Shown piece by piece: positions 460-64,000 of a DNA stretch of 64,000 bases (positions within the stretch are counted from its first letter, which is position 1; each line of letters begins with the position of its first letter). The position numbers and the translations under genes were made by a program. The notes under the pieces are model-generated. The model was not told the DNA's origin. It did not search any database and worked only from the letters and a program-made list of their open reading frames with translations. Source of the DNA: an uncultured Actinomycetota bacterium (GTDB lineage: Bacteria; Actinomycetota; Actinomycetes; JAHEKZ01); contig CAVPLY010000011.1 of assembly GCA_963706045.1 (NCBI GenBank), positions 87,536-151,535 on the forward strand. Direction: 5' to 3'.

Positions 460-1377
<918 letters not shown>

Positions 1378-1381
<4 letters not shown>

Positions 1382-5735: not shown

Positions 5736-5873
5736 GCAGGGCACGCTGCGATAGCGCGCAGCGGCAGGCCAGCTGTGAGCGTGGGGCCGGCTGTTTCGGT
5801 CGCTTTGTCCTGGGCAGGCCTTCGGCCGTAGACTGGGGGCGTTCGCCGTCTGCGTCCCGAGGGGAGGGGCTTG

Positions 5874-6632: not shown

Positions 6633-6633
6633 C

Positions 6634-8669: not shown

Positions 8670-9172
8670 GTGAGGCGCAGGCTCTTGCTGCTCGGCTCGT
8701 GCCAGCTCTCCACGAACGGGGACTGACGGTGGCCGTGGCTGAGTCGCTGACCGGTGGGCTGGTGATGGCCACCCTCACTGAGATTCCTGGCGCCAGTGCG
8801 GTCCTCCGGGGCGGCCCCGTTGTCTATGCCACTGACACCAAAGCCTCTGAGCTCGGCGTCGACCCCGAGCTGCTGGCGTCCCAGGGACCTGTCAGTGCTC
8901 TCGTCGCAGAGGCCATGGCCGTCGGGGTTCGCGCCAGATGGCGGGCTGACATCGGCCTCGCCACGACCGGGGTTGCCGGCCCGGACGGCCAAGACGGGCA
9001 CCCCGTCGGAGAGGTCTACGTGGCGCTCGCCGACGCCTCCGACTCCTTCGCCATTCCGAGGTCGTTGGGGAAGGGGCGCGATCGGGCGGCCATCCGCCAG
9101 CAAGCTGTGGAACAGGCGCTCATTGCGCTTGCAGCGCACATCGGGATCGCCGGGGAAGCCACCGCAGGCTGA
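8666..9172 (+). CDS. CinA C-terminal domain protein (nicotinamide-nucleotide amidohydrolase PncC-like)
   Basis: GTG 8666 overlaps the pgsA stop. [14 protein letters not shown]...[23 protein letters not shown] is typical of the CinA C-terminal domain. The longer listed ORF 8027-9172 reads upstream across the rimO 3' end and the pgsA gene in another frame. Confidence 0.8.
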
Positions 9173-9254
9173 CGCGGTTACACTGGCAGTGCCCGGGCGG
9201 CGACCGCCGCTCGGTCTGTCAAAAAAGGCAGGGCCTGTCACGAAGGGATCGCCG

Positions 9255-9578
9255 ATGATCGTGTTGCGTCAGCATCTCGGCGACGAGTTGCGCCGCCAGC
9301 GTCAGCAACAGGGACGCACGCTTCGCCAGGTCTCCGCCTCCGCCCGGGTCTCGCTCGGGTACCTGTCCGAGATCGAACGAGGACAGAAGGAGGCGAGCAG
9401 CGAGTTGTTGGCGTCGATCTGCGGCGCCCTCGAGATCCCGCTGTCGGCGCTGCTGCGCAACGTCAGCGACGACATCGCTTTGGCCGAGCTCGCATCGGCC
9501 CCGGTCATCCCCGCGCGTGGTGACGAAGACGGCGACGGCGGCCCGCGTGCGGCCGCCGGGGTGCCAGCCGCCGTCTGA
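9255..9578 (+). CDS. clgR: XRE-family transcriptional regulator ClgR
   Basis: [45 protein letters not shown] closely resembles mycobacterial ClgR. Position after pgsA/cinA as in M. tuberculosis. Confidence 0.75.
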
Positions 9579-9652
9579 CCGTGGCTGATCGCCCGGAACG
9601 TCAGGTCTCGCCAGGGCAACAAAGGGCTCCGCAGGTTCGGGCGGGTAATGCC

Positions 9653-10118
9653 ATGGAGCGGGCCCGAACCCAGATCCTTGTCGCTGCTGCTGACCTCGTC
9701 GCCGTCGGCGGACTTGCGTGCGGTCACGATGGCGTCGGTTGCCCGTACGTCCGCCGTGGCCAAGGCCACCGTGTACAACCACTTCCGCGACCGTGACGAC
9801 GTGTTGCAGGCGTTGCTGGAGTCTGAAGGTGAACAACTCGTCACCCACTGTGCTGCCGTACCGACCGACGAGCGCCTGCAGGCAGCGGCCCGTTGGCTGG
9901 GCAGCTCGCCGGTCATCGCTGGTCTCCGCCGCTACGACCCCGCCACGCTGGTGAACGTGGCCAACCGGGCGGCCACTGAACCCAGCGTTCACGAGGTGGT
10001 GGCCGGTTGGTGCACCCCCGGCCACGATTGCGCCGATGCTCTGCGATGGCTGGTGTCGTTCGCCGTGGTCCCCGGGGAATCTGGTGAAGCACCCTCCGGG
10101 GAAGAAGCGTCCCTCTAG
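9653..10118 (+). pseudogene. TetR-family transcriptional regulator, frame break near 9716
   Basis: MERARTQILVAAADLVAVGGL is in the frame of 9653. The HTH continuation RAVTMASVARTSAVAKATVYNHFRDRDDVLQALL is in the frame of 9648. The join reads gga ctt g cgt. Confidence 0.75.
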
Positions 10119-10171
10119 TCTGTCGGCGCGAGGAGCAGTGCCCCACGGTCGTCGATCCCAGGTATCCGGCT

Positions 10172-13100
10172 CTATCCGTCTCCGTGAGCGGAGCGGCTGC
10201 GATCGGCCGCAGCCGGAGCCCCCTCGGCGTGAGCAGGAATCCGGCTTCCTGCAGATGGTGGCGCCAGCCGGAGGAGTGGATGTCTGTGCCGTCGACGCGC
10301 TGCACGTGCAGAGGGGGTCGACGGCCGGCGCGCACTGCGCCGGCGAGCGCCTCGGCTGCCGCAGCGGCCCGGAGGGACTCGGCCTCGCTCCACGTCAGCA
10401 ACGACCGGCCGCCACGCTCGACGAAGAGCGCTAGTCCGTGGTCATCGAGCACAACGGTGGCACCGGCCTTGCGGCCCGGACGGTGCGCGTCGGCCGACGC
10501 CGGCCAGGGGAGCGCTGCCCCGTAGGGATTGGCCGGGTCGGTGGCTGCCAGGACGATGGGACCTGAGGCAGAGCCCGGGGGCTCACCCGCGGTTTGGCGA
10601 CGTCGGATCTGGTCGACCGCCGAGCTACCGGCGAACTGTGCGGCGCCGAGTCCCTCGACGAAGTAGCCGCGCTGGACGCGTCCGGCGTCTTCCATTGCTG
10701 ACATGACCCGGTAGACGGCGGCGAACCCACCCGAGACGTTCTCGGTGGCGACAGACCCTCGGGTGAGCACGCCATGACGGCTCAGCAGAGCCTCGGCCAG
10801 CGCGTGCGCGCGGAGCGTCGGAGTGGCGGGTTCGGAGGCGACGCGAAACCACCGCCCCGGGACCTGTTCGCCAGGGCGAACCCGGGGCGATCTTCGGCCG
10901 GCACCGGGGGCGCGGCGTCTGGACGTTGCTACCGAGGTCGGCGGGGCCACCCGTTGCGACCGGCCGAGGTGGCTGCGACCCAGCCGTGTGCGTACTGCGG
11001 CAAGGGAGTCGTTGGTCAGGACCCCCGTCCAGACCAGGTCCCAGAGCGCCTCGTCGACGACGTCTGAGGAGTAGCCGGGGAGCCCGGCATGTACGCCACG
11101 CGTCAGAAGGGCGACGCCGTCTCCGAAGAGGTCGAGAACGGCCGACTGGGCCTCGGTGGGAGTGTCGATCGCGACCGGCGGGGGCAGCAGCGTCGACATC
11201 TGATCGGCCGTGACGAAGCCGATCCACCCGTCGCCCTGCGGCAGCCCACCTGCGCCGAACCACATGACGTCGCCCGAACCGGTCAGCTCGTCGAGCCACG
11301 CCGGTTGGTAGCCCGGGAGCCGGGCGGGCAGGATGCTGCGCTCCCACTCAGAAGCAGGAGCGGTGGCGGCGCCGAGCTGTTCGATGCTGCGGTACAGGTC
11401 GTCAACGCCACCTGCCCGACCACCTGGGTTCACGCCCTGCCATGCGGGCAGGAAGGTGGTGAGGGCTTCGCTCGCCACCGGCTCTGCCGCTTGTTGCGCC
11501 AGTGCGAGGCTGGCGCGGCGGATCTGGCGAAGCACCTCGGCGTCGCACCACTCCGCGCCGGTCTCGCCGGGGCGGAAGGCGCCGGCCACCACTCGGCCGC
11601 CGACCGCCAGCCGTTGCAGCGCGGTGTCGACGACGGCGGGACCGAGGAGAGGCCGTGCGCTGCGTCGCTGGTCGAAAAGGGCCCGTGGGTGCGGGCATAG
11701 CGCGAGACGAGATCACCCACCGGATCGGTCACCGAGGCAGTGAACGCGCCGGAGATCCCGGGGGAAGCGGAATGCCGATGGCGTCGCGGAGGCGAGCGAG
11801 GTCTTCGACGGCGACCAGGCGCTCGCCGGAGGGCAGTCGAACTGACACCGCCCGGTTGCTGTCGACGAGGACAGCTGCCCATGTCGGGTCTGCGCCGCGC
11901 CTGACCAGGTCGTCGTCGGACAGTGGCCCGAGCACCCGAAGGGCATCTGCGACCGCCTCAGGATCGCGCAGCCGACGTTCGTCGGTGAGCCACCCGACGC
12001 GGCGCTCGACGAGCGCGATGGCGTCAGGGTCGAGCAGCTCGCGGAGCTCGGCCTGCCCCAGGAGCTCGGCGAGCAGCGTCGTGTCGACCGAGAGCGCAGC
12101 GGCCCGCCGCTCGGCGAGAGGTGCATCGCCTTCGTAGAGAAAGGCGCCGACGTAGGAGAAGAGCAGGGAACGGGCGAACGGTGACGGTTGCTGGGTCTCG
12201 ACCTCGACGATCCGCATCCTGCCCCGGTCGAGATCGGTGAGCAGGTCGCGCAGGCCAGGAACGTCGAAGACATCCTGAAGGCACTCGCGCATCGTCTCGA
12301 GCACGAGCGGGAAGGTGGGGTGACCGGAGGCGACTCCGAGCAGCTGCGCGGAGCGCTGGCGTTGTTGCCACAGCGGAGTGCGTCGGTCGGGGCGACGCCG
12401 TGGCAGCAGAAGCGCACGGGACGAGCACTCGCGGAAGCGGGCGGCGAACAGCGCCGACCCCCAGACCGCGTCGGTGACCTCACGCTCGACGTCGTCGGGA
12501 TCGATGAGCAGGTGGTCGCTCAGCGTCGGTGCTCCGCCGTCATCGGAATCACCGAAGTCGGGCAGTCGAAGAACGATGCCGTCGTCGGACGGCATCACCT
12601 GCACGTCCATGTCGAGGTCGTTGCGCAGGCGCGCCGCGATGGCTAACGCCCACGGCGTGTTCACGCGTCCCCCGGCGAGAGAGTGCACCACGAGTCGCCA
12701 GTCGCCGATCTCGTCGCGGAAGCGTTCGACCACGATCGTGCGGTCGTCGGGAACCGCCCCGCAGATCTCGTGCTGCTCGGCCAGGTAGGCGATGGCGTTC
12801 GTTGCGGCATTGTGGTCGAGACCGACGGCGGTCAGCTGTGCTTCGGCGCCTTCGGCCGTGGCCCCCGGAGCTGCCGGATCGTGGCGCCGATGGCCTGGCC
12901 GAACTCGCGGGGGCGTCCCACCGTGTCGCCATGCCAGAAGGGGAGCTTTCCGGCGCGCCCCGGTGCGGGGCTGACGAGCACCTGGTCGTGGGTGATGTCG
13001 ACGATCTGCCACGACGTCGAGCCAAGGGCGAAGACGTCGCCGACGCGCGACTCGTAGACCATCTCTTCGTCGAGCTCGCCCACCCGTCGCCCTGGGCCTC

Positions 13101-14754
13101 CGCCACCGGCCAGGAACACCCCGTAGAGACCGCGGTCGGGGATGGTTCCCGCGTTGATGACGGCAACGCGCTGAGCGCCGGGGCGCGCGGTGAGGACGCC
13201 GTCGTCGCGGTTCCAGACCAGTCGCGGCTTCAGCTCGGCGAAGGCGTCGGAGGGGTAGCGGCCGGCGAGCATGTCGAGCACGCCGTGCAGTGCCGAGTCG
13301 GGCAGCGATCGAAAGGGGTCGGCACGGCGGACCATCGACGCCAGGTCGGTGACCGTCCAGTCGTCCATGGCGACCATCGCCACCACCTGCTGGGCGAGGA
13401 CGTCGAGCGGGTTGCGGGGCACGGCGAGCGCTTCGATCTCGCCCTTGCGCATGCGCTCGACGGCCACCGCACTGGGCAGCAGGTCGCCGCGGTGCTTGGG
13501 GAACAGAACGCCCCGCGAGACGCCTCCGACCTGGTGACCGGACCGTCCGATGCGCTGCAGTCCGCTGGCCACCGAGGGCGGTGACTCGACCTGGACGACG
13601 AGGTCGACGGCACCCATGTCGATGCCGAGCTCGAGGCTGCTCGTCGCCACCACGGCGGGAAGCGTGCCCTGCTTGAGCTGCTCCTCGATCTCGCTGCGTT
13701 GTTCACGGGAGACCGATCCGTGGTGGGCGCGGGCAATCTCGGTACGTGGGTCGTCGGTGGTACGCGGCAAGGTGGCGCCGGCTTGGGCCATGACGGCGGC
13801 GGGGGCCGAGGTGGGTGGTGGCAGCTCGCTGCCGGTGGCGCGTCGCTCGGCCTCCTCGTTGAGTCGGGCAGCCAGCCGCTCGGTGAGGCGGCGGGAGTTG
13901 GCGAACACGATGGTCGACCGGTGCTCTTCGACGAGGTCGACGATCCTGGACTCGACGTGCGGCCACAACGACGGTGGCGCGGCCGCCAGCTCACCGTCGA
14001 CATCGAGGGCACCGTGGTCGCCAACCGCTGTGAGATCTTCGACCGGTACGACGACAGATAGGTCGAACTCTTTGTCGCTGGGCGGCTGGACGACGGTGAC
14101 CGGTTGCGCACCACCGAGAAAGGCGGCAACGGTCTCGGTGGGCCGAACCGTCGCCGACAATCCGATGCGCTGCGCAGGGGAGTCGACAAGCTCGTCGAGA
14201 CGCTCCAACGACAGCGCAAGGTGCGCGCCACGTTTGGTGCCGGCCACGGCATGCACTTCGTCGATGATCACGGTCGAGACGCTGCTGAGCGTCTCGCGTG
14301 CCTTCGAGGTGAGCATGAGGTACAGCGACTCGGGCGTGGTGATGAGCAGCGTGCTCGGGCGACGAAGCTGTCGCTGACGTTCGGCCGGCGGTGTGTCACC
14401 GGAGCGGATGGCGACCGAGATGTCCGGAGGGGTGAGGTTCTTACGTTCGTAGGCGTTGCGAATGCCCGCGAGTGGAGCGCGCAGGTTGCGTTCGACGTCG
14501 ACAGCGAGGGCCTTGAGCGGCGAGACATAGAGCACCGTGGTGGCAGGGTCGGCCGGTGGCTCAGAGGCACAACGGTCGAGTGCCCAGAGGAAGGCGGCGA
14601 GGGTCTTACCAGACCCCGTCGGGGCGACCACAAGGGTGTGCTGTCCCTGACTGATGGCCTGCCACGCGGCCTCCTGTGCTGGCGTGGGTTCGGCGAAGAC
14701 GCTCGTGAACCACCCCCGGGTATGGGGTGAGAAGGCAGAGAGGGCTGACGGCAC
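10172..14754 (-). pseudogene. lhr: ATP-dependent helicase Lhr (about 1500 aa), split by three frame breaks
   Basis: ORFs 12832-14871 (DEAD/DEAH core, VVAPTGSGKTLAAF), 11729-13012, a short piece in the 11430-11882 frame (GAFTASVTDPVGDLVSRYARTHGPF) and 9913-11592 concatenate into one Lhr. Breaks are at C5 12862-12866, at 11756-11763 and at about 11659. Start proposed at GTG 14754 (VPSALSAFSPHTRGWF). The 3' end is uncertain: the ORF runs on to 9913. Confidence 0.8.
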
Positions 14755-14760
14755 CTGCTC

Positions 14761-14782
14761 ATCTTGGTCGGTGCCTGTGACA
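14761..14782 (-). promoter_or_regulatory. Candidate RecA-NDp/PafBC-type promoter for lhr (leaderless geometry)
   Basis: Minus strand reads TGTCACAGGC-accgac-CAAGAT-gagcag-GTG. The consensus is TGTCAGTGGC-N6-TAnnnT. Spacing is exact, with 8/10 matches in the upstream element and a C at the first position of the -10. Confidence 0.35.
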
Positions 14783-14906
14783 GTGCCCACCCAGGGCCAC
14801 CCGCTCTCAGCACGTGGGGGTCCGACACAGTGGGCCGGAAGCGTCTGAGGGCGTGGTGGCCCGATCTTCACCGGCGTGGGCGCTTGTAGACACAGGTAAG
14901 AGGCGG

Positions 14907-15752
14907 ATGAATGGAGTCATGTCATCGCTGACTCATGCACCGCTTCGTTCCCGAACGCGCCGCTCGGCCTCGCTCGCTGCTCTCATGATGCTCGCCGTCG
15001 TGTCGTTGTCCGGCTGCTTCAAGCTCGACATGTCGCTAGAGCTGTCACCCGACAACACCGTCGATGGCTCGATCATCTTGGCGGTCAACCGAGCCCAGGC
15101 TGAGCTCTTCGGCGGTGAGGACGCGCTGCGCGAGTCGTTGTCCGGCGAGGGCGGCAGCCTGATCGACAATGCACCCGACAGCGGCACCGTCGAGACCCGC
15201 GACTACGAGGATGACGACTGGATCGGCAACGAGTACGTGTTCAAAGACGTCGGCCTCGACGAGTTCAGCGGCGCCGACACCGGCGAGCTGTCCATCACGC
15301 GCGAGGGTGACACCTTCGTCGTCGAGGGCATGCTCGACCTCTCGCAAGGCACCGAACCCGATGCAGCGGCCGCGGCTCTGCTGGAGTCGGCCGAGACCGA
15401 GATCTCCATCACCTTCCCAGGTGCGGTGCAGAGCAGCAACGGCGTCGAAGACGGCAACACCGTCACCTGGTCACCGAAGGCCGGCGAGAGCACCGAGATC
15501 TCGGCGGTGGGTAGTGCCGAAGCTGGACTTCCCATCACCTTGATCGCCGCTGTCGTGGCACTGGTGGCGCTGGTCGCGGTCGGGGTCGTGCTGCTCGTCA
15601 TGCTGCGCGGCCGTCAGGCTGCCGCACTGCCTGCGGCTGGGCCTCTTCCCGAGGGAAGCATCGTTCCGGACGCCCAGCAGCCGGACGCCCAGCAGCCGGA
15701 CGCGCCGACAGGCGACGAGCCACCCGCACCCCCGGCTCCTCCCGCTCCCTGA
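14907..15752 (+). CDS. LppM-family lipoprotein with a C-terminal TM anchor and Pro-rich tail
   Basis: AAGAGG RBS. Signal peptide with lipobox LSGC. FKLDMSLELSPDNTVDGSI is LppM-like. C-terminal TM helix. Confidence 0.65.
   Translation: MNGVMSSLTHAPLRSRTRRSASLAALMMLAVVSLSGCFKLDMSLELSPDNTVDGSIILAVNRAQAELFGGEDALRESLSGEGGSLIDNAPDSGTVETRDYEDDDWIGNEYVFKDVGLDEFSGADTGELSITREGDTFVVEGMLDLSQGTEPDAAAAALLESAETEISITFPGAVQSSNGVEDGNTVTWSPKAGESTEISAVGSAEAGLPITLIAAVVALVALVAVGVVLLVMLRGRQAAALPAAGPLPEGSIVPDAQQPDAQQPDAPTGDEPPAPPAPPAP
15666..15706 (+). repeat. 15-bp in-frame tandem repeat (CCGGACGCCCAGCAG, 2 full copies plus a partial third) inside the LppM-like gene
   Basis: Encodes PDAQQ PDAQQ PDA. Confidence 0.8.
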
Positions 15753-15786
15753 GTGACCAGCGGCCTCTTGTCGTACAGTCGCCTGC

Positions 15787-15981
15787 GTGCGATTCACCGA
15801 CTTCTGGGACCGGATGGAGACCCATCTCGGCTCCTCCTATGCACGCAGCTATGCGCGCGATCACGTCCTGAGCCAGCTCGAGGGGCGCACCGTCGAGCAG
15901 GCTCTCTCCGACGGTGAAGACGCGACGCGCGTGTGGCGCGCGGTCGTGGCGGCGCTCGACCTACCCGCTCGCTACCGGTGA
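15787..15981 (+). CDS. DUF3046 domain protein
   Basis: MRFTDFWDRMETHLG...YARSYARDHVL...TVEQAL is typical of DUF3046, which neighbours recA in actinobacteria. GTG start. TACAGT lies 7 nt upstream, giving possible leaderless geometry. Confidence 0.7.
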   Translation: MRFTDFWDRMETHLGSSYARSYARDHVLSQLEGRTVEQALSDGEDATRVWRAVVAALDLPARYR

Positions 15982-15999
15982 GACGGCGATGAGCTCCCG

Positions 16000-17277
16000 G
16001 TGAACCTGCAGACGACCACGCCGCTGCAGCGGCGAACGGTTCGCGTCCTGGCCGCCGCCCAGGTGCTGACAGGCGTTGGCGTCGGTGCGGGCGTAGCGGC
16101 AGGCAGCTTGCTTGTGGCCGACCTCACCGGAGCGGAGGGTCTGGCTGGTCTGGCGCAGACGGCTGGCGTCGTGGGGGCGGCCGTTGCCGCCGGCCCGCTC
16201 GCCTGGTTGTCGGTGCGCTCCGGACGCCGCATCGGCCTCGTGACGGGGCTCTGGATCGCTGCCGCCGGAGCGCTGGTCGTGATTGGTGCCTCGGTCCTCG
16301 AGGTGGTCCCGCTCGTGCTGCTGGGGACGTTCGGGGTCGGAGTCGCCTCAGCGGTAGGGCTGCAGGCCAGGTATGCGGCGAGCGACCTGGCCTCACCCGT
16401 CCACGTCGGACGTGACCTGTCCATGGTGGTCTGGGCGACGACGGTTGGCGCGGTTCTGGGACCCAACTTGATGCAACCGGCGGCCAACCTCGCCGAGGCG
16501 GTGGGCCTGCCGGCGTTGAGTGGTCCCTACCTGGTCACCGCCTCCAGCATCACATTGGCGGCACTGCTGGTGGCGGGAATGCTGCGCCCGGATCCGCTGC
16601 TTGCTGCCCGCGACCTGGCAAGGGCTTCCAAGGCCGAGGACTACCTGGAACCCCGGCAGATGGGGATGATCGCCGAGCTGACGCACGGGGCCAGGGTGGT
16701 GCGCTCGGCACCTGGGGCAACCCTCGCCGTCGCCGCCATCGCTGTCGGCCACGTGGTGATGGTCATGGTGATGGTCATGACGCCGGTGCACATGCAGCAC
16801 GTCGACGTCACGCTGCAGGTCGTCGGGCTGGTGATCAGCGTGCACATCCTGGGCATGTACGCGTTCTCGCCGATCGTGGGTTGGCTCGCTGACCGACGAG
16901 GCAGCGTCGCGGTGATCAGCGGTGGCGTGGTGGTGCTCGCGCTCTCGACGGTGATCGCCGGAACGGCTCCTGGCGACTCCATCGTGCAGCTCGGGATCGG
17001 TCTCTTCCTGCTCGGCCTGGGGTGGTCGGCGACCTTGGTCGGTGGCTCGGCGCTGCTCTCGACCTCAGTGCCCGAGGAGACCCGACCGGCGGCGCAGGGG
17101 GTCGGAGACACGGTCATGAACGTGGCGGCGGCGGTGGGCGGCGTCCTGGCGGGCGTCATCGTGTACACGGCCTCATACGGGTGGCTGAACGCGGCGGCCG
17201 CTCTGTGTCTCATACCCCTGGCGGCTGCGCTGGTGCGGCGGCGTGTCGCAGATGCCGTTCGAACACCTGTTCGGTAG
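16000..17277 (+). CDS. MFS transporter
   Basis: 425 aa with about 12 predicted TM helices. A Gly/Ala/Val-rich hydrophobic pattern throughout. Confidence 0.7.
   Translation: MNLQTTTPLQRRTVRVLAAAQVLTGVGVGAGVAAGSLLVADLTGAEGLAGLAQTAGVVGAAVAAGPLAWLSVRSGRRIGLVTGLWIAAAGALVVIGASVLEVVPLVLLGTFGVGVASAVGLQARYAASDLASPVHVGRDLSMVVWATTVGAVLGPNLMQPAANLAEAVGLPALSGPYLVTASSITLAALLVAGMLRPDPLLAARDLARASKAEDYLEPRQMGMIAELTHGARVVRSAPGATLAVAAIAVGHVVMVMVMVMTPVHMQHVDVTLQVVGLVISVHILGMYAFSPIVGWLADRRGSVAVISGGVVVLALSTVIAGTAPGDSIVQLGIGLFLLGLGWSATLVGGSALLSTSVPEETRPAAQGVGDTVMNVAAAVGGVLAGVIVYTASYGWLNAAAALCLIPLAAALVRRRVADAVRTPVR
16756..16779 (+). repeat. Perfect 12-bp tandem duplication (GTGATGGTCATG x2) inside the MFS gene
   Basis: Encodes VMVMVMVM within a TM segment. 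In frame. Confidence 0.85.
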
Positions 17278-17284
17278 AGTCACC
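17269..17284. promoter_or_regulatory. LexA (SOS) box upstream of recA
   Basis: TCGAAC-acct-GTTCGg compared with the actinobacterial consensus TCGAAC-N4-GTTCGA. It lies 160 nt upstream of the recA ATG and overlaps the MFS 3' end. Confidence 0.65.
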
Positions 17285-17347
17285 GCGACGCATCACGCAG
17301 TTCCGCTATCCACAGGCTGAGGGCGTCGCCCTCCGACTGTCAGAGGT

Positions 17348-17369
17348 CCGGCGTAGCGTCGCCAGCGAC
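17348..17369 (+). promoter_or_regulatory. RecA-NDp / PafBC-type promoter upstream of recA
   Basis: TGTCAGAGGT-ccggcg-TAGCGT compared with TGTCAGTGGC-N6-TAnnnT. 8/10 matches, exact spacing, and a matching -10. Confidence 0.6.
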
Positions 17370-17443
17370 ATCAAGGTCACTGCATGCTTACCGCATGCCC
17401 GACCGAGTACCGACAGGCACCGACCACCCGTGAAGGGGAACTC

Positions 17444-18490
17444 ATGGCAGACCGCGACAAGGCCCTCGACTCCGCACTCGCCCAGATCGAGCGCCAGTTC
17501 GGCAAAGGGTCGGTCATGCGTCTCGGCGACGAGACACGCGCGCCGGTCGAGGTGATCCCTACCGGGGCCATCTCGCTCGACATTGCTCTCGGCATCGGGG
17601 GTCTCCCACGCGGACGCGTCGTGGAGATCTACGGCCCCGAGTCGTCAGGTAAGACGACGGTGGCTCTCCACGCCGTCGCCAATGCCCAGGCACTGGGTGG
17701 CATCGCCGCCTTCATCGACGCCGAGCACGCGCTCGACCCCGAGTACGCCAAGAAGCTGGGCGTCGACACCGATGCCTTGCTGGTGTCGCAGCCAGACACC
17801 GGTGAGCAGGCGCTGGAGATCACCGACATGCTGATTCGCTCAGGCGCGATCGACATCATCGTGATCGACTCGGTGGCAGCCCTGGTGCCGCGCGCTGAGA
17901 TCGAGGGCGAGATGGGCGACAGCCACGTCGGTCTGCAGGCACGCTTGATGAGCCAGGCGCTCCGCAAGATCACCGGGGCGCTCAGCCAGACCGGTACCAC
18001 CTGCATCTTCATCAACCAGCTCCGCGAGAAGATCGGCGTCTTCTTCGGATCGCCTGAGACCACCACCGGCGGCAAGGCACTGAAGTTCTACTCGTCGATT
18101 CGGCTGGACGTCCGACGGATCGAGACGCTGAAAGACGGTACCGAGCCGGTGGGTAACCGCACCCGGATCAAGGTCGTCAAGAACAAGATGGCGCCACCCT
18201 TCAAGCAGGCTGAGTTCGATATCCTCTACGGCCACGGAATCTCGCGCGAGGGCTCGTTGCTCGACCTCGGCGTCGAGAACGGCTTCGTCCGTAAGTCCGG
18301 TGCCTGGTACACGTACGAGGGCGACCAGCTCGGTCAGGGTAAGGAGAACTCGCGCAACTTCTTGATCGACAATCCCGACCTCGGCAACGAGATCGAGAAG
18401 AAGATCAAAGAAAAGCTCGGGGTCGGGCCGCAGGTTGATGCCGAGGCTGAGGACATCGATCTCACCGAACCGGCCCCCGTCGACGCCTAG
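17444..18490 (+). CDS. recA: Recombinase RecA
   Basis: [30 protein letters not shown], Walker [10 protein letters not shown], and full-length RecA similarity. No intein. GAAGGGGA RBS. Confidence 0.95.
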
Positions 18491-18492
18491 CG

Positions 18493-19059
18493 GTGGCGAA
18501 GGCAGCGAGAGCGGCCCGCGAGCGGTCGCCGGAGTCGGAGGCGTTTGCCGAGGGCATCGGGCCTGAAGCGGACGCCGACCCGGTCGAGGTCGCCAAGCAG
18601 ATCGTCCTGAACCAGATCAGTGCGAGCGCCAAGAGCCGTCACCAGTTGGCGCAGGTGCTTGCGCGCAGAGAGGTCCCCGATGACGCGGCCGAGCAGGCCC
18701 TGGACCGATTCACCGAGCTCGGCTACATCGACGACGCGGCGTTCGCCCGAGGGTGGGTGGAGTCACGGCAGCGCACCCGCGGCCTCGCTGCACCGGCTCT
18801 CCGTCGCGAGCTGCGCGACAAGGGCATCTCGGCTGACCTGATCGATGAAGTGCTGCTCGCCTGCGTCGACGGTGATGCCGAGCGAGTAGCCGCCGGTGTG
18901 CTCGTCGACAAGAAGCTACGCACCATGCGTTCGGGAAGGCCGGTTGACCGCGACACCGCCACCCGCCGCCTCGTGAGCATGCTGGCCCGCAAGGGATACA
19001 ACTCGTCAGTGGCGTACAGCGTGGTGCGCGAGCGGCTCGATCAGGTCGAGACCGGCTAG
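18493..19059 (+). CDS. recX: RecA regulator RecX
   Basis: Lies directly after recA. It contains ...GYIDDAAFARGWVESRQRTRGLAAPALRRELRDKGI... and has RecX repeat architecture. Confidence 0.85.
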   Translation: MAKAARAARERSPESEAFAEGIGPEADADPVEVAKQIVLNQISASAKSRHQLAQVLARREVPDDAAEQALDRFTELGYIDDAAFARGWVESRQRTRGLAAPALRRELRDKGISADLIDEVLLACVDGDAERVAAGVLVDKKLRTMRSGRPVDRDTATRRLVSMLARKGYNSSVAYSVVRERLDQVETG

Positions 19060-19096
19060 GGCAGCAGGTGAGCATATGGGCCGTGTCGGCCTCGCC

Positions 19097-21112
19097 TCAG
19101 CTTTCGAGCGTAAGAGTGGGTACGCCAGGCGGGTCGAAACCGAAGACCTGGCCATAGAAGGACAGCTCGGACTCGAGGGCCACGATCGTCGACTCGGCCT
19201 TGCGAAAACCGTGCTGTTCGCCTGCGAAGAGCAGGTAGGCGTGCGGAATGCCAGTGCCGGCGAGGGCGTCGGCGACAGCCTGGGGTTGGCTTGGCGGAAC
19301 CACCTTGTCGTCGTCTCCCTGGAGCAGCAGGATCGGAGTCCGCAGCTGGCGCAGGTGGGTGAGCGGCGAGCGTTCGACATATCGGTCGCGGGTCTCGGGC
19401 AGTGGGCCGATCAGGCCGTCGAGGTAGCGCGACTCGAAGTCGTGGGTGTCTTCGGCGAAAGGCAGCAGGTCGGTCACCGGGTAGTAGGCGGCCCCGGCGG
19501 CGAAGGCATCGGTCTGCACAAGGGCCGCGACGGTGGTCCATCCGCCTGCCGATCCACCGCGGATGCCGAGACGTGCGCCATCGGCGATGCCTGCGACTGC
19601 CAGGGCCTGCGCTGCTGCGACGGAGTCCTCGACGTCGACGATTCCCCACTGGGTTCGAAGGCGGTCACGGTACTCGCGGCCGTATCCGGAGGAGCCGCCG
19701 TAGTTGACGTCGATGACTCCGATCCCGCGACTGGTGAAGAAGGCCTTCTCGACGTTGAGCCCAGGGACCGAGTGCGAGGTAGGTCCGCCGTGGACGTACA
19801 CCACGAACGGTGGCCGCTCGCCATCAGGCGCAACGGCACCCGGGTTGCGTGGCGGGTAGACGAACGCGTGGATGTCACGCCCGTCGACGCCCGCGAACGT
19901 GTGCGCCTCCGTGCGCGGCAGAAAGGCGGCGTCCGGCAACGACTCGGTGGATGGGCGGACGACGTCGAGCGCGAGTTCTGGGCCTGAGATGTCGACCACG
20001 GCCACTGACCACGGCATCGTGTCGGAGCGCACGACCGATGCGACGGTCTCTCCGAGGGCCATGACGTACGGCTCCCAGGTGTGGTCGAGGCCACTGGGTG
20101 TCAGCGAGCCATCGGCGGGATCGAGAATCGACAGCAGCTCGTGTCCGCGACCATGGGTCACTGCGAGCCGACCGTCGGACAGCACCGCGTAGCTCGTGAA
20201 GCCCAACAGCCAGAGTGGGCTGAAGAACTCTTCGTCCCGTGGTGCCAGAAGCTCGCAGGTCTGGAGACGTTGATCGACGCCGTCGGCAAGGGTGATGCGG
20301 TAGATGTTCCACCACCCGGTGCGGTCGCTGACCGCATACAGGTGGTCGTCGTCGGCCCACTCCGGTTGCATCACCGACTCGGTGGTCGAACCAGCCACCA
20401 CGCGCTCGGTCGCGGGCAGAGCGTCGGAGATGTTGACGACGGCGGCCACGGTGCCGTCCCACGGCATCTGCGGGTGGTCCCACGCGACGTACGACACGCG
20501 CTGTGCATCGGGTGAGAGCCGGGGATGTGAGTAGAAGTGGTGCTGATCGTTGACGACGACAATGGCGGTGTCGTCATCAGCAGCCGATCCGTCGAGCGGG
20601 ATCAGCACCAGATCACGGGTGACGACGCCGGCGACATGTGTCTCGCGGATGGCGAGCACCGTGCCTGAGGGTCCCGGCCGTGGCTCCCCGTACATGTGCG
20701 TGGTGTCGGGGGTGGGTGCGGTGGTCAGAGGACGCGGCTGCGACTGTCCGTCGGGCAGCAGGTAGAGGCGCTGGTCGTCCCAGAAGCAGAAGGTGGTGGC
20801 GTCCGGGGTGCTAGCCAGGCCGGAGGTGCTGACCCTCGTCCATGGGTGGGCGCCGTACTCGATGATGCGGCTACGCACGCTCCATTCGGGGCCGACCACA
20901 TCGCTGATCTCACCGTCGGCCGTGCGGCGAGTCAGGGCGAAGCGGCCACCATCGCGCGGACGCCCCTCGAGCCACCAGATCTCACGCTGATCGGAGTCCT
21001 CTGGTGAGGCCACGACGGCCGGGAACTCCAGGGACCGGGTGCCGCTGGCCACGTCTGCCGCACTGATCGGTGAGGGCCAGGTGCCATAGGGGAGTGTCGC
21101 TACTGCATTCAT
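19097..21112 (-). CDS. S9-family serine peptidase (prolyl oligopeptidase / acylaminoacyl peptidase type)
   Basis: N-terminal propeller plus a C-terminal alpha/beta hydrolase domain with GGSAGGW (Ser) and GEQHGF (His). Start moved to ATG 21112 (MNAVATLPYGTW) to avoid overlap with the divergent gene. Confidence 0.8.
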   Translation of the reverse strand: MNAVATLPYGTWPSPISAADVASGTRSLEFPAVVASPEDSDQREIWWLEGRPRDGGRFALTRRTADGEISDVVGPEWSVRSRIIEYGAHPWTRVSTSGLASTPDATTFCFWDDQRLYLLPDGQSQPRPLTTAPTPDTTHMYGEPRPGPSGTVLAIRETHVAGVVTRDLVLIPLDGSAADDDTAIVVVNDQHHFYSHPRLSPDAQRVSYVAWDHPQMPWDGTVAAVVNISDALPATERVVAGSTTESVMQPEWADDDHLYAVSDRTGWWNIYRITLADGVDQRLQTCELLAPRDEEFFSPLWLLGFTSYAVLSDGRLAVTHGRGHELLSILDPADGSLTPSGLDHTWEPYVMALGETVASVVRSDTMPWSVAVVDISGPELALDVVRPSTESLPDAAFLPRTEAHTFAGVDGRDIHAFVYPPRNPGAVAPDGERPPFVVYVHGGPTSHSVPGLNVEKAFFTSRGIGVIDVNYGGSSGYGREYRDRLRTQWGIVDVEDSVAAAQALAVAGIADGARLGIRGGSAGGWTTVAALVQTDAFAAGAAYYPVTDLLPFAEDTHDFESRYLDGLIGPLPETRDRYVERSPLTHLRQLRTPILLLQGDDDKVVPPSQPQAVADALAGTGIPHAYLLFAGEQHGFRKAESTIVALESELSFYGQVFGFDPPGVPTLTLES

Positions 21113-35786: not shown

Positions 35787-36647
35787 ATGACGAGCACCAC
35801 CATGACGACCACTGAAGCCCTGGAGCGCGACGTGCTCGAGACCCCCGCAGACTCCCAGCCCTTCGAGGCCCAGCCCTTCGCCGACGAGTACGGCGACCCA
35901 GCGCGCTACGACCTCGAGTACGGCACAGCCGGCGCCGACCTGCCGTTCTACGCCGCGCTCGCCGAGCAGACCGAGGGCCCCGTCCTCGACGTCGCCACCG
36001 GCACCGGACGCGTGGCGCTGGCCCTGGCTGAGGCCGGCCTTGACGTCACCGGCGTCGATGTCAGCGCTGCCATGGTCGAGTTCGCCTCGGCCAAGGACGC
36101 CGAAGAGTCCGTCGCCTGGATCGAGCAGGACGCCCGCGAGCTCAAGGTGCGCGGCAAGTTCGGCCTTGCAGTCCTGGCCGGCAACGCCCTGCAGCAGTTC
36201 GTGACCAACGACGATCGCACCGCTGTGCTGAAGGCGATCTACCGTCAGCTCGCCCCCGGCGCCACGTTCGCGTTCGCGATCCGCTTCCCGCACGCGTCTG
36301 AGCTGGCTCGGACCGTCGAGACCGCCGAGATCTGGCACTCGTACACCGACGCCACCGGCAGCCAGGTCATCGTCTCGGGCACCCAGCGCTACGACGCCGT
36401 CGCCCAGGTCATGACGCACGAGACCTTCCGGCAGTTCGCCGTCGACGGCACCCCAGCCGCGGCACCGACCGCCACCGCCGTTCGCTACTCGTTCCCGCAG
36501 GAGCTGGACGCCGCGCTCAGCGCCGCCCGCTTCGAGATCGAGGCCACGTACGTCGACTTCGCTGGCACCCAGCTGACCGCTGAGACGGCCGCCACGGCGT
36601 CCGCACTCGTGTACGTCTGCCGCAAGCCAGAGAGCACCAAGCGCTAG
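35787..36647 (+). CDS. Class I SAM-dependent methyltransferase
   Basis: Motif I VLDVATGTGRVALALAEAGLDVTGVDVS. Confidence 0.75.
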   Translation: MTSTTMTTTEALERDVLETPADSQPFEAQPFADEYGDPARYDLEYGTAGADLPFYAALAEQTEGPVLDVATGTGRVALALAEAGLDVTGVDVSAAMVEFASAKDAEESVAWIEQDARELKVRGKFGLAVLAGNALQQFVTNDDRTAVLKAIYRQLAPGATFAFAIRFPHASELARTVETAEIWHSYTDATGSQVIVSGTQRYDAVAQVMTHETFRQFAVDGTPAAAPTATAVRYSFPQELDAALSAARFEIEATYVDFAGTQLTAETAATASALVYVCRKPESTKR

Positions 36648-58720: not shown

Positions 58721-60097
<1,377 letters not shown>

Positions 60098-60121
60098 GTC
60101 GACGCCACGGGATCTGTTTCT

Positions 60122-61216
60122 ATGGCTGAGTTGACTATCGTGCACGCGGTGGGCAGCCCATTTGACCGCGGCGTGACCATCGGCAGAAAGCTCGCCGACG
60201 GGCACCTAAGCGCAGTCGACTTTACTCGCAGGTACACCCGTCGCCACGGTCTGGCCGATGCTGACCTCGAACCTCTGCTCACCCCTTACCTCGCTGCTGC
60301 CAAGAATGCCGTGCCCAGACTTGTTACTCATCTAGAGGGCGTCGCCGAGGGAAGTGGAATCCCGTTTATCGACATCTTTGCCGTCAATGCATTCGAAGAG
60401 CTCTATGCCGTGCTCGAGCTCTCGGTCGAGCCCGTTGACGGCGTTGAGATTGCCCGGGTGCCGCCTCCGATTCCTGTGGAACGGTGTACCGACCTTCTGG
60501 TGCGCACACCGGTCGGAACCATTCTCGGACACAACGAGCAGTGGTACTCGGGGGATGATGGCGGTATCGCGGTCATCGTCGAACATCCGGACTCCGACGA
60601 CGAGGTGGCAACGGTGACTCCGGTCGCGGTGGGTACTCTGCCGCTCGTCGGCATGAACGCAAGTGGCGGCGCTCTGGGCCTGATGTCCTTGTCGGGTGCT
60701 GACGAGCGAGTAGGTATTCCGCGGGCGCTGTTGGCGCGGGACGGGATTGAGGCCAGGGATCGCGTAGATGCCATAGCGAAGGCCACCCGAAAGAATCGAG
60801 CTGGCGGGTACTCCTACGCCTACGCATTCGCAGGTGGAGATTCTTTCACGCTCGAGGTGTCAGCTACTCGCGATGGCCTGGTCGAAAGTTCGGTCCATAC
60901 GAACCACGCTCTGAATCGCGCCGTTGCCGAAGTCTCTGAGGAACCGTCCGCTGGCAGCCGTTCGCGCTTCGACCGTGCATCCACTTTGTTGGCCGATAAC
61001 CCACCGCAGTCGGCCCAAGAGGTCATGCGAGTGCTCGGTGACCATGGCGCTGATGGGCAGGACATCTGTGTTCACCCCAGAGCCCCCGAAGGCGATGAGG
61101 GGTCGACGATTCAGTTCGCGATGGTTTGTGACGTCGAGGGTCGAACGATGTGGCTGGCCCCCGGTCAGCCGTGCTCAACCCCATTCCAGGAGGTACGACT
61201 CGGAGATCTGCTGTGA
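60122..61216 (+). CDS. C45-family autoproteolytic acyltransferase/hydrolase (acyl-CoA:6-APA acyltransferase-like)
   Basis: 364 aa. A candidate nucleophile Cys sits in ERCTDLLVRT..GHNEQW, within Ntn-hydrolase-like architecture. Starts 24 nt after the rpoD stop with no terminator between them. Confidence 0.65.
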   Translation: MAELTIVHAVGSPFDRGVTIGRKLADGHLSAVDFTRRYTRRHGLADADLEPLLTPYLAAAKNAVPRLVTHLEGVAEGSGIPFIDIFAVNAFEELYAVLELSVEPVDGVEIARVPPPIPVERCTDLLVRTPVGTILGHNEQWYSGDDGGIAVIVEHPDSDDEVATVTPVAVGTLPLVGMNASGGALGLMSLSGADERVGIPRALLARDGIEARDRVDAIAKATRKNRAGGYSYAYAFAGGDSFTLEVSATRDGLVESSVHTNHALNRAVAEVSEEPSAGSRSRFDRASTLLADNPPQSAQEVMRVLGDHGADGQDICVHPRAPEGDEGSTIQFAMVCDVEGRTMWLAPGQPCSTPFQEVRLGDLL

Positions 61217-61252
61217 TCCACAGTCGAGTTTGAGCCGGGCGTCGTCAGCAAC

Positions 61253-61309
61253 TAGTGCGCGACTATCTGGATTGAGTCTTATCCACTGTGAACTGATAAG
61301 TCCGACGCG
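61253..61309 (+). repeat. Copy A of the rpoD-terminus repeat, carrying a 24-nt hairpin insertion
   Basis: TAGTGCGCGACTATCTGGATTGAGTC, then [TTATCCACTGTGAACTGATAAGTC], then CGACGCG. The inverted repeat CTTATC/GATAAG lies within the insertion. Confidence 0.65.
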
Positions 61310-61514
61310 ATCCGGACAGGCCGTTGGTCAGATGTCGCCTCCGTAGCTGTCAGACCCCCTTGCTCACACGCTCACCGCGTCTCACGGCACGTCGGCACGC
61401 TCCGCTGTCACCGGTCGCACCCCCCCACCAACCGATAGCGGGCATTGGGTGAGGAGACTCGTAGTCGGGTCGACGTGTGCGGCCCCGGCGTCCTAGGCAG
61501 CCAGTTCGAGAATT

Positions 61515-62798
61515 TCAGTAGGTGACCTTTAGGCGGACCACAAGCCCTGCGCGTGAAGCTTCCCCAGTGGCGAGTAGTCTTCCTTGGGCATCGACGGCGA
61601 GTTCGTACACAGTGTCCCACCCCCGGGCCAGGTCCGGAATGAAGATCCCGTTTCGGCCGAAAGTGCGGTCGATGGCACCACCAGGGGTTATCCGGAGCAG
61701 AACGGCCTTGTCGATGTAGTTGTCCCGGTCGACACCAATCGTCGCGAACGCGTAGCTGCCGTCCGGCAAGAGGGCGCCACTTTCGGCGGAGCTGACCAGC
61801 CGACGATCTGTACTCACAAACGCCACACCGTCCCTGGAGTAACTCGGGTCAAGGACGCCGCTGCTGAGCAACCGGTGAACGGCGAATCGAGTATTGGAGC
61901 TGGCTGGAGTCTTGGAACCGACGACAATATCGTCGGCGGGGGTCACATCGAGGTCGACTGGCCAGATCGCCGCCCCGGATGGTAGCCGGAGGTCGGCTCG
62001 CCCTGAACTGTTGAACGTCGCGTCCCGCTGACCGGAGGTCGTGAGTCGGATCACCGATGCGGTGCTGGTCGGATTCCCTCGCCGATCCGCGATGCTCGAC
62101 AGGACGACCGGACGGTCCTGCGAGTCCACAGCCAGCCCAGTCACTTCAAGGGCCCGTGCGAACTTCAAGTAGACCTGACCGCGAGTTCCAAATGATCGGA
62201 CGATGGTTCCCGCTGGACTCAACTTGGTCACCACGATGCTCGAGCGGAAGGGCTTCTTGCTCACCATGTTGTCGCTGGCGAAGTAAGCGTTGCCGACGGA
62301 GTCTGTGGCCGCCTGTACGTAGCCTCGGGAGATGTGGGACTGAGGCAGGACCCGGTAGCCGCCTGCGAACGACTGATCGACCCGGCCATTGCTACGGAGC
62401 CGGAAGACCAGAGCCTTTCGACGGTTCTGGCCGGCGACGAGAAGTCCGCCAGAGGAAAGCGCGACCCCATCCAGAAGCCACGTGTCGCGGTCCTTCGACA
62501 TGCGGAAAATGCCGTCACCGCTGAACGTACTGTCGAGGCGACCTCGGTTGGTGTAGGCCGCTACCAGACCCCGATCTGACGTTCTGGTCGACGTCGAACC
62601 GAGGGCGTACACCCGCCCATTCGCGGCAGGCACCACCTGCCACCAGATCTCCCTGGTGTCGGCGATGCTGAGTGCTGCCACACCGTCCCTGCTGAACGTC
62701 CGATCGAGCGTCGGGTTACCGTTCGCACCCCACGCCACCGGGAGCAAACTGAGCGACACCAGCCCCACACCCACCAACACCAGCCCACGGGATCTCAT
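61515..62798 (-). CDS. Secreted delta-60 repeat protein (7-bladed beta-propeller type)
   Basis: GAGGAGG RBS. Signal peptide MRSRGLVLVGVGLVSLSLLPVAWG. Seven repeats of about 55-60 aa, of the form G.LD.(S/T)F..DG (PTLDRTFSRDG, GRLDSTFSGDG, GRVDQSFAGG, GVLDPSYSRDG, GAIDRTFGRNG...). Confidence 0.75.
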   Translation of the reverse strand: MRSRGLVLVGVGLVSLSLLPVAWGANGNPTLDRTFSRDGVAALSIADTREIWWQVVPAANGRVYALGSTSTRTSDRGLVAAYTNRGRLDSTFSGDGIFRMSKDRDTWLLDGVALSSGGLLVAGQNRRKALVFRLRSNGRVDQSFAGGYRVLPQSHISRGYVQAATDSVGNAYFASDNMVSKKPFRSSIVVTKLSPAGTIVRSFGTRGQVYLKFARALEVTGLAVDSQDRPVVLSSIADRRGNPTSTASVIRLTTSGQRDATFNSSGRADLRLPSGAAIWPVDLDVTPADDIVVGSKTPASSNTRFAVHRLLSSGVLDPSYSRDGVAFVSTDRRLVSSAESGALLPDGSYAFATIGVDRDNYIDKAVLLRITPGGAIDRTFGRNGIFIPDLARGWDTVYELAVDAQGRLLATGEASRAGLVVRLKVTY

Positions 62799-63086
62799 GA
62801 CGACCTCCTCGTAGCAACGGCCACGACAACCCCCTCGGTGCAAAGATCAGCCCACACGAAGGCACCTGCCAGAGGCGAAAGACCCCACCGGCTCCGTCGG
62901 CGGCAACTACAGCAACTCCGGGACGGCGACGGTGGACTACTGCGCAGGGTCATCGCTGGTGGCTACTCGGTGCCCCAGCTCGTCCGGGTCACCGAACTCC
63001 TCTACCAGGGATGCCCCACTGCTGCCTGGTCACCCGGACCAGAAGTCGTCAGTACGTCCAGGCTGCAGACGTGTGAACGGCGATGC

Positions 63087-63317
63087 CTAGGGCCAACTCT
63101 CAGTCCAGGATATTGCACCGCACAGCGCTCGCGAGCTGACGTGCTTGAGCACGGTTTGCACAGCGCTCAGCGGCTCATAGTGCGCGACTATCTGGACTGA
63201 GATTCGACGCGGGGAATGATCATTTGGCCCCGCCCGCTCGATCTCGTGTGGTCGCATGTTCAGCCAGGCGAGAGCGCCGTCGCCGATCGGGTCGACGCGC
63301 CACGCCTGCCTAGTCAT
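63087..63317 (-). CDS. Hypothetical 76-aa ORF spanning repeat copy B (doubtful)
   Basis: Third-position G+C is elevated in 63211-63317, but there is no RBS. The ORF crosses the repeat, and the opposite strand reads an rpoD-like tail. Confidence 0.25.
   Translation of the reverse strand: MTRQAWRVDPIGDGALAWLNMRPHEIERAGPNDHSPRRISVQIVAHYEPLSAVQTVLKHVSSRALCGAISWTESWP
63178..63210 (+). repeat. Copy B of the rpoD-terminus repeat
   Basis: TAGTGCGCGACTATCTGGACTGAGATTCGACGCG. 23/24 identical to copy A over the first 24 nt. It encodes VRDYLD-stop on the plus strand. Confidence 0.7.
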
Positions 63318-63358
63318 GGCGCGACCGTAGCCAGTGGGATCTGACTGACTGAGGGCTC

Positions 63359-63853
63359 CTAGACCCACCGGGGATCCTTACGCTCCGATAGGCCACAGAA
63401 AGTGAGCCAAGCCCCTCCGGTAAGCCACACCAGTGGCCAGACGAAGTCGAATCCCGACCAGCCGGCGGTGACGTTCTCTGGGTCGTTGGGGTCGTAGGTG
63501 ATATCCACCTGGTCGCCGATCTGGACGCTGTATCCAGGATCGACATCGGCTTGGTAGGTGACCCCATCAACCCGGTATTCAACCGTGGGGACTCGGTCTT
63601 CCGACCAGAAGTCGTAGTGCGTGCTGAGAACCACCGCGGCTGTCTTCTCGCCTCCCCGGACCAGCGAAACGGCATCCATCAGCATCGATCCCCCCAGAAC
63701 GAGGCACGCTGCGCCGGCGAGGACCAAGCCAATCCACTTGCGCGACGTCTCGACGGGGGAGTGAGCCTTCCTTCCAGTGGCCGCGTTGAGCCGAGAGAGC
63801 GTTTGCTCCGGTGTCTCACCGGTCACCCTTCGGTGTCGGTTGATGAGGCTCAT
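63359..63853 (-). CDS. DUF3592 domain membrane protein
   Basis: AAGGAGG RBS with ATG 63853. TM helix, then VVLSTHYDFWSEDRVPTVEYRVDGVTYQADVDPGYSVQIGDQVDITYDPNDP, then a C-terminal TM helix. Confidence 0.7.
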   Translation of the reverse strand: MSLINRHRRVTGETPEQTLSRLNAATGRKAHSPVETSRKWIGLVLAGAACLVLGGSMLMDAVSLVRGGEKTAAVVLSTHYDFWSEDRVPTVEYRVDGVTYQADVDPGYSVQIGDQVDITYDPNDPENVTAGWSGFDFVWPLVWLTGGAWLTFCGLSERKDPRWV

Positions 63854-64000
63854 GGCACACCCCTCCTTACGATGGTGCGCAGGGATCCCAACGCCCGCTA
63901 GGGCCGTTTGTCCCGCTCGCACATCTGACTAACGGACCTTGTCTGGGCTGAATGTCGCCATCGTCGTGGGGCTGCGCTGGTCGCGAGATACCGGATGCAC

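Follow-up and report, generated by a model that had tools for sequence, protein, structure and literature searches.

The principal sigma factor gene, rpoD, of an uncultured Actinomycetota bacterium ends in a short sequence that is found twice more downstream of it. We analysed 64,000 nucleotides (nt) of this genome (GenBank assembly GCA_963706045.1, contig CAVPLY010000011.1, positions 87,536 to 151,535), a stretch referred to below as the window. An earlier note on the window had proposed that the three rpoD ends may record serial site-specific insertion into the sigma factor gene. The first interval between the repeats (unit 1) holds a C45 acyltransferase gene on the + strand and the second (unit 2) a gene for a secreted delta-60 propeller on the - strand, as that note had described. 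We name the repeats copies A, B and C and use the terms of phage integration for attachment (att) sites, attL being the junction next to the rpoD body and attR the one at the far end. The features are as follows.

58721-60097, + strand: rpoD, principal sigma factor and proposed target gene, intact, 458 amino acids (aa); Pfam Sigma70 regions 1.2, 2, 3 and 4; 70-93% identity to actinobacterial rpoD/hrdB.
60080-60098, + strand: copy A, attL-type core, spanning the last five codons of rpoD, its stop codon and one G; nhmmer match to the core only, 60080-60111, 18 bits.
60099-60121, + strand: leader of unit 1, TCGACGCCACGGGATCTGTTTCT; 24 nt separate the rpoD stop from the C45 start.
60122-61216, + strand: cargo of unit 1, a C45 family autoproteolytic acyltransferase/hydrolase (Pfam AAT, NCBIfam NF040521).
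61253-61276, + strand: copy B, internal junction, TAGTG plus core; nhmmer 61252-61286, 22 bits.
61277-61336, + strand: downstream arm of junction B, TCTTATCCACTGTGAACTGATAAG and, further on, GTTGGTCAGATG.
61515-62798, - strand: cargo of unit 2, a secreted delta-60-repeat (DUF5122) beta-propeller protein (NCBIfam TIGR02608, Pfam DUF5122).
63080-63221 (core 63183-63201), + strand: copy C, full-length attR-type module of P arm, TAGTG and core; nhmmer 95 bits, E = 2.5e-27, model positions 7-149.

The core of the repeat is the end of rpoD itself. The rpoD-terminal sequence CGCGACTACCTCGACTGAG lies at 60080-60098 and recurs on the same strand at 61258-61276 and 63183-63201; likewise, CGCGACTAYCTSGAYTGAG matches the 64 kb in three places, each on the + strand and either at the rpoD stop codon or behind it. 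A search of the window that tolerated up to two mismatches returned nothing besides these three copies, against a chance expectation of 0.01, and none of 100 shuffled sequences reached three. A profile search (nhmmer) with a model of the complete module, described below, also gave exactly three matches. All three copies read RDYLD-stop, and B and C differ from the rpoD copy by synonymous changes only; the two share a 24-nt block, TAGTGCGCGACTATCTGGAYTGAG, with one mismatch. The positions, the synonymous character of the differences and the shared TAGTG-containing block thus stand as the earlier note had given them, and its own misgiving that the motif might be a dispersed repeat is allayed by the finding of only three copies, all at rpoD. 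TAGTG is directly 5′ of the core in B and C, where it occupies the place that rpoD codons would have, and is absent at A. The sigma factor gene has kept all of its 458 codons, every sigma-70 region and its RDYLD-stop end. The units A-B and B-C each consist of one non-phage gene bounded by junctions, with no gene for recombination or transfer, and neither contains phage genes or an integrase.

Copy C proved to be considerably longer than the repeat that had drawn attention to it. We aligned 98 distinct modules of this family, and the consensus reads CTCAGTCCAGGATATTnCACnnCACAGCGCT, about 30 nt of further sequence, and then GCACAGCGCTCAGnCGTCCCTAGTG-CGCGACTACCTGGACTGAG. The first of these blocks is an exact inverted copy of the core end, CTGGACTGAG. 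Copy C agrees with every conserved block of the consensus, and by blastn the segment 63098-63202 of the window matches more than 40 metagenomic modules at 72-84% identity. The earlier note had recognized the repeat here correctly but had drawn it too short: about 85 nt upstream (63097-63177) also belong to the conserved module, which is about 140 nt as a whole. Two features stand out in this P arm.

63099-63108, + strand: CTCAGTCCAG, the inverted copy of the core end CTGGACTGAG and the most conserved block of the P arm, 88-99% in the 98 modules.
63120-63129 and 63158-63167, + strand: a direct pair of GCACAGCGCT repeats, candidate arm-type sites; the right arms of L004, L119, L171, L152 and L226 contain this pair as well (L numbers are our own handles for loci fetched from other genomes and contigs).

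Copies A and B carry smaller parts of such a module. The sequence TCTTATCCACTGTGAACTGATAAG after copy B had been described as a 24-nt hairpin-forming insertion. It is instead a conserved post-core arm, homologous to that in junctions of L152 (a/b), L226 (J1/J2) and L191, and its predicted fold is ordinary (z = -0.87). A GGTCAG motif in the same arm matches the left arms of L004, L006, L010 and L149. The leader behind copy A, TCGACGCCACGGGATCTGTTTCT, resembles the stretch that follows the core in a phage attP (L086, TGAGTGACGTCACGG) and in junction 3 of L226 (TGAGTTGACGCCAGGGG), and lies within the homology block common to the window, L226 and L089. Copy B as a whole is a hybrid, with the phage-side TAGTG on its left and the downstream arm common to the L152 and L226 junctions on its right. 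We also considered a role of the copies as terminators or hairpins and rejected it: the folds of all three are unremarkable (z from -0.9 to +0.1) and a terminator scan was empty at the copies. There is no tRNA, tmRNA or Rfam match at the site. In the rpoD 3′ ends of L001-L080, CGCAGGTCCTG is found just upstream of the core, and in the left arms of elements a similar sequence, CGCAGGTCAGAG, follows the core at a distance of about 30 nt. These two sequences and the inverted P-arm block CTCAGTCCAG may represent the half-sites of an integrase.

If the copies are att junctions, free elements should carry the rpoD end next to an integrase gene, and this is what we found. A search of viral contigs with the integrase of L004 as the query led to IMG/VR contigs of 27-79 kb (L083-L088) in which the integrase gene is preceded by ...TAGTG-CGCGACTAYCTYGACTGA..., with no rpoD on the contig. 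TAGTG plus core next to an integrase, on a viral contig lacking rpoD, is an attP. The same arrangement occurs in Streptomyces phage Kromp (MH744420) and in viral contigs L096-L104. Kromp is the closest isolate in the GenBank phage collection; its integrase is 83% identical to that of L086, and its attP, ...GGATATTGCA...TAGTGCGCGACTATCTCGACTGAG, lies about 77 bp upstream of the annotated tyrosine integrase, between this gene and the helix-turn-helix/immunity-repressor side of the genome. In Kromp and the viral contigs, the attP combines the rpoD-end core, TAGTG and the conserved arm of about 85 nt. Since TAGTG precedes the core in phage attP and in B and C but not in A, we take it as a signature of the phage side. 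The integrases are simple Xer-like tyrosine recombinases that score below the XerC/XerD cut-offs, have weaker, sub-cutoff matches to integron-integrase models as well, and conserve the R...K...HxxR...Y residues. The discovery of free elements with an rpoD-end attP beside a tyrosine integrase gene supports the insertion that the earlier note had suggested.

Two further observations concern the phages. Right after its rpoD-like stop codon, Kromp has a very stable hairpin (L093 1375-1450; -38.9 kcal/mol, z = -5.4), which appears to be a phage-borne terminator that would terminate rpoD after integration; all three copies in the window lack such a hairpin. The next closest integrases in the phage collection, at 43%, are those of Cluster E mycobacteriophages. 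In one of these, SirDuracell (L094, NC_041987, about 36240-36420), GTCAGATAATGCACGGCACACCGCTCGC upstream of the integrase gene is close to the window P-arm block CCAGGATATTGCACCGCACAGCGCTCGC, and no rpoD-like core was found within 1.5 kb of that gene.

Integrated elements of the same family were found in other bacteria. We fetched 80 rpoD loci from species-representative genomes and recovered the rpoD end in 78 of them. In at most five of the 78 (L004, L006, L010, L015 and L042), the first 10 kb behind rpoD contain another junction or a piece of one, and the comparison that the earlier note had recommended thus reveals empty sites in related genomes. A second RDYLD-stop copy on the same strand was present in L004 and L006. 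In L004, a metagenome-assembled genome (MAG) of Actinomycetota, the copies are 9 kb apart (11051-20051), and the DNA between them opens with a gene for a 310-aa tyrosine recombinase (PF00589 and an N-terminal SAM-like domain) and also encodes a small-terminase-like protein and an HK97-type capsid protein. In L006 (Mumia quercus), only 926 bp separate the copies; there is no integrase, but the L004 and L010 elements have left ends that align with the first 140 nt or so of this segment. In all, an integrase lies within the element in L004, L010, L111, L165, L171 and L212, and repeat-flanked elements bearing one follow rpoD directly in L004 (9 kb), L171 (10.2 kb, 113-10329, including a 785-aa open reading frame [ORF]), L212 (6.1 kb) and L111 and L165 (3.5 kb). 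Elements with their own integrase, set between the same direct repeats right after rpoD, are further support for insertion. The elements of about 9-10 kb in L004 and L171 have no full virion gene set, the 785-aa ORF of L171 being outside the family-library scan, and they therefore look like phage satellites rather than prophages. One apparent att pair was rejected: the second RDxLD-stop in L054 (Actinomycetota MAG) belongs to a complete tandem sigma paralog of 409 aa (11584-12813) with an RDFLD end, 230 nt after rpoD, and this locus serves as a negative control.

Unit 1 recurs as a module in other loci. The nearest homolog of the C45 gene (86%, L089) likewise starts 24 nt after rpoD. Nucleotide homology between the window and L089 runs from rpoD through C45 and ends at 61274, inside copy B; beyond it, other genes fill 4.8 kb of L089 before a decayed C-like copy is reached. 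Another homolog (84%, L226) is preceded by a peptidase S9 gene instead of rpoD and belongs to an array of four or more junctions, whose successive units carry DUF3500, then GNAT and S9, then C45, and so on. Here homology to the window covers exactly 60078-61279, core to core. Cores thus delimit the same unit in all three sequences, its neighbours being different, and the divergence at the repeat boundaries that the earlier note had asked of relatives falls precisely at the cores. More distant C45 homologs (70-74%) are at ordinary loci with no att modules, as we checked for L091 (74%) and L092 (70%). From the core-to-core homology with different neighbours, and from the ordinary, module-less location of the distant homologs, it follows that the C45 unit was placed, or re-placed, by recombination at the cores. 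As for unit 2, an 86% homolog of the propeller gene in L228 adjoins a full family module. We also considered a distal arm site in the 3′ end of the C45 gene, where TCCAGGAGGTACGAC resembles GGATATTGCAC, and rejected it, since the encoded PFQE(V/L)RL is conserved in C45 homologs far from rpoD.

Taken together, these data make it very probable that the repeats are att junctions of a phage-type, Xer-like tyrosine integrase family that acts at the rpoD 3′ end, and that the two units of the window are stacked remnants without an integrase. The proposal of serial integrase-mediated insertion that leaves remnants behind is supported by the attP sites, the integrated elements, the empty sites and the variation at the boundaries. 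We envisage the following course of events. Integrases carried by temperate actinophages and by small phage-like islands would use as attB the final 18-19 bp of rpoD together with its stop codon, and the attP of the incoming element would include its own copy of the rpoD terminus. A crossover within the core would leave rpoD intact, producing copy A as an attL of rpoD body, core and short element-derived leader, and would displace the second copy to the far end as attR. Further integration into a junction would stack a second unit and create an internal attP-like junction, copy B, with copy C as the outermost attR and its complete P arm. Both units would have lost the integrase and all phage genes, each retaining one cargo gene, which would make them remnants of the cis-mobilizable type in tandem accretion. 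Integrase supplied in trans would then have recombined the cores and reshuffled units between arrays. Both the order of the insertion events and a possible continuing competence of B and C for recombination are inferred.

Several observations weigh against this interpretation. No integrase of the rpoD-end family, nor any detectable relative, is encoded in any of the six frames of the 64 kb, so the recombinase that the earlier note had sought near the locus is not in the window. The P arm of copy B is cut to about 5-40 nt and the downstream arm of copy A to about 12 nt; as sites, A and B may be dead. The counterparts of B and C in L089 are so decayed that RDYLD-stop is lost, which shows that selection does not maintain them in that locus. 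For the propeller unit, the one close relative, L228, does not share it core to core: homology covers only 61463-62998, and there is no module on the other side. Finally, we found no experiment in the literature showing that these integrases use rpoD as attB, and the Kromp site is deduced from its sequence.

Most of these points would also fit another history, in which two full-length prophages or islands integrated in turn, decayed in place by ordinary deletion and never moved again, the similarity among arrays being due to shared ancestry. Such static scars would explain units with neither phage genes nor integrase, the truncated arms at A and B, the decayed B′ and C′ of L089 and the lack of clean core-to-core limits for the propeller unit in L228. 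However, the limits of the C45 unit are identical in three contigs in which its neighbours differ, the unit following rpoD in the window and L089 and peptidase S9 in L226. The window and L089 part exactly at the B core, and independent deletions would not stop at cores every time. We therefore regard decay in place as unlikely, though still the strongest competitor to junctions that recombined.

The modules are widespread, and their arrays invite comparison with integrons. TAGTG plus core was present in more than 120 metagenomic contigs, with 11 matches in the viral scan. Across the fetched loci, we counted 30 intervals between successive junctions, all junctions being co-oriented. Six intervals contain an integrase and measure 3.5-10.2 kb, and 24 are without one and measure 0.64-3.9 kb, a count that favours the shorter intervals, since the contigs were short and had to include both junctions. 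Arrays in which modules of about 130 nt separate single-gene units were seen in L191, L152, L181, L226 and L188; some intervals hold several genes. The cargo of the integrase-less intervals includes a GNAT acetyltransferase, a PD40 propeller, an RTX protein, a lysyl-oxidase-like protein, a response regulator, an ECF-sigma-like protein (assigned by eye), DUF3500, peptidase S9 and an HTH_17 protein.

The rpoD 3′ end might accordingly act as a platform like attI, receiving single-gene cassettes, each with its own module, and expressing them by read-through from rpoD. The arrays fit such a scheme, and so do the Xer-like integrases with their weaker matches to integron-integrase models, and the position of C45, which starts 24 nt past the rpoD stop codon. 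Given this short gap and the lack of a predicted terminator within it, C45 is likely now co-transcribed with rpoD. But no integrase resides by the array, no promoter-like site was found in 59900-63500, several genes share some intervals, and the modules are duplex phage attP sites with arm repeats rather than folded sites of the attC type. We initially entertained a co-orientation of units as in integrons and rejected it once more units were examined: relative to rpoD, cargo genes are mixed in orientation (about nine forward and five reverse among the units examined), and the propeller of the window is on the reverse strand. This mixture argues against an integron-like expression platform. The integron-like cassettes that the earlier note had offered as one option therefore hold as far as single-gene units in arrays are concerned and fail on the resident integrase, the type of att module and the orientation, and we consider a platform of this kind improbable.

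The two remaining explanations fare far worse. A dispersed intergenic repeat, or a regulatory or terminator element unrelated to recombination, would suit a short intergenic motif; it is very improbable, as there are three copies in 64 kb, only at rpoD, elsewhere the motif lies beside rpoD or an integrase gene, the folds are not significant, and Rfam gave no match. Pseudogenes of sigma factor paralogs or gene conversion from rpoD would account for RDYLD-stop in all copies, and a true tandem paralog does exist in L054, but this is hardly conceivable when a C45 gene lies upstream of B, no sigma-70 domain is found in 60924-61346 or 62838-63200, C is preceded by sequence homologous to the arms of phage attP, and TAGTG replaces the rpoD codons directly upstream of the core.

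Returning to att junctions of phage integrases, one could go further and see in the rpoD 3′ end a general and active docking site of soil actinobacteria, at which Xer-like integrases supplied in trans by phages or satellites build and reshuffle arrays of tiny single-gene units that lack an integrase and each have a complete attP-like module, in functional parallel to integrons, the first unit riding on rpoD transcription. This broader picture is speculative, and we give it a low probability.

The class of mechanism proposed here is known. Phage 21 and e14 insert in E. coli icd by means of a tyrosine integrase that acts at the 3′ part of an essential housekeeping gene; the replacement 3′ end differs mainly synonymously, and a displaced pseudo-3′-end remains at the far junction. 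The gene, the host phylum and the integrase lineage are different from those described here, and we know of no multi-unit arrays at icd. Kromp shares with the window the rpoD-end core, which it has in its attP, and is a complete 58-kb phage, whereas the window has the junctions only. Integrons similarly gather units at a single fixed place in the chromosome, most of them with one gene and each with a recombination module at its end, and employ a tyrosine recombinase of the Xer clade. Unlike integrons, the arrays at rpoD have no adjacent intI, no attC-type folded single-strand sites and no uniform cassette orientation, and their modules are phage attP sites.

Tandem accretion of cis-mobilizable elements (CIMEs) is the closest process known. 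It has been described for the ICESt1 family in Streptococcus thermophilus, with tandems of integrative and mobilizable elements (IMEs) and CIMEs (PMC5704250). There, too, insertion is at the 3′ end of a gene, a remnant without an integrase keeps attL and attR, the next element enters an att site, and the internal att site is shared (PMC5704250). At rpoD, the donors would be phages and phage-like islands rather than conjugative elements, the target gene is different, and the units are 0.64-3.9 kb, often with one gene, in arrays that can have three or more junctions. The pathogenicity island PAISt of Streptomyces turgidiscabies has a tyrosine recombinase and sits at the 3′ end of bacA, likewise a protein-coding gene, and one internal and two flanking direct repeats bound its modules; the integrase and sites are eroded in related species (PMC4057263). 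PAISt differs in being a large conjugative island with an 8-bp palindromic site, as compared with a 19-bp rpoD core in a module of about 130 nt with arm repeats and window units of about 1-2 kb.

Actinophage tyrosine integrases are generally described as using tRNA or tmRNA genes. For mycobacteriophages, a 2022 review states that their tyrosine integrases use tRNA-overlapping sites exclusively (PMC9262239), and a 2011 paper reports that no attB could be found for the Cluster E phages (PMC3029335). We found no paper in the literature that names rpoD, hrdB, sigA or MSMEG_2758 as an attB. As far as our searches show, rpoD as a target gene, a family of this breadth and arrays of such tiny units without an integrase have not been described. 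The family reported here appears to use the last codons of rpoD/hrdB instead, and it extends over an isolated Streptomyces phage, viral contigs of 27-79 kb, islands of 3.5-10 kb and more than 120 metagenomic contigs. Across actinobacteria, the last 18 nt of rpoD are almost without variation, which makes them a target as dependable as a tRNA gene. For Kromp and its relatives, we predict an attB at the hrdB 3′ end, ...CGCGACTAYCTSGACTGA, and given this near-invariance, the predicted site could serve for new integration vectors in most actinobacteria. The DNA just behind rpoD would be a hot spot of accessory-gene gain that annotation pipelines would miss, since an integrase is absent from most units. 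The arrays whose single-gene units have complete att modules lend themselves to the study of how phage recombinases capture and move DNA that lacks an integrase.

The remaining observations concern the surroundings of the repeats. At 62.7% GC, the segment 60001-64000 is the lowest 4-kb bin of the window (67.3% overall; 65.7-70.0% in the other bins). C45, the propeller and the DUF3592 ORF listed below have no counterparts near rpoD in the 80 genomes, in which the upstream Usp-rpoD synteny is conserved. On these two grounds, the units of the window look acquired. Models of defence systems gave no match for the three window proteins. One more gene lies to the right of copy C.

63359-63922, - strand: DUF3592 membrane-protein ORF (Pfam), low in GC like the units.

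This ORF is either host flank or a further acquired unit. The DNA to the right of copy C has no homology to L089 or other loci past about 63213, and low GC continues there, so that the acquired region may run past nt 64000. The N-terminus of the DUF3592 ORF (...RVTGETPEQTLSRL..., window 63787-63867, - strand) resembles a small ORF (...TATGETPEQTLARL...) in L229 (reverse complement 1720-1800), and the latter is directly upstream of a 60% propeller homolog without an intervening att module. The resemblance hints at a former adjacency of the propeller and a DUF3592-like leader. At the other end of the locus, the N-terminus of rpoD (58735-59040) consists of Lys/Ala/Pro-rich repeats of the AKKAPAKK type, with a periodicity of 15-45 nt and a weak histone-H1-like (HC2) match; such a repeat region is typical of actinobacterial HrdB-type sigma factors.

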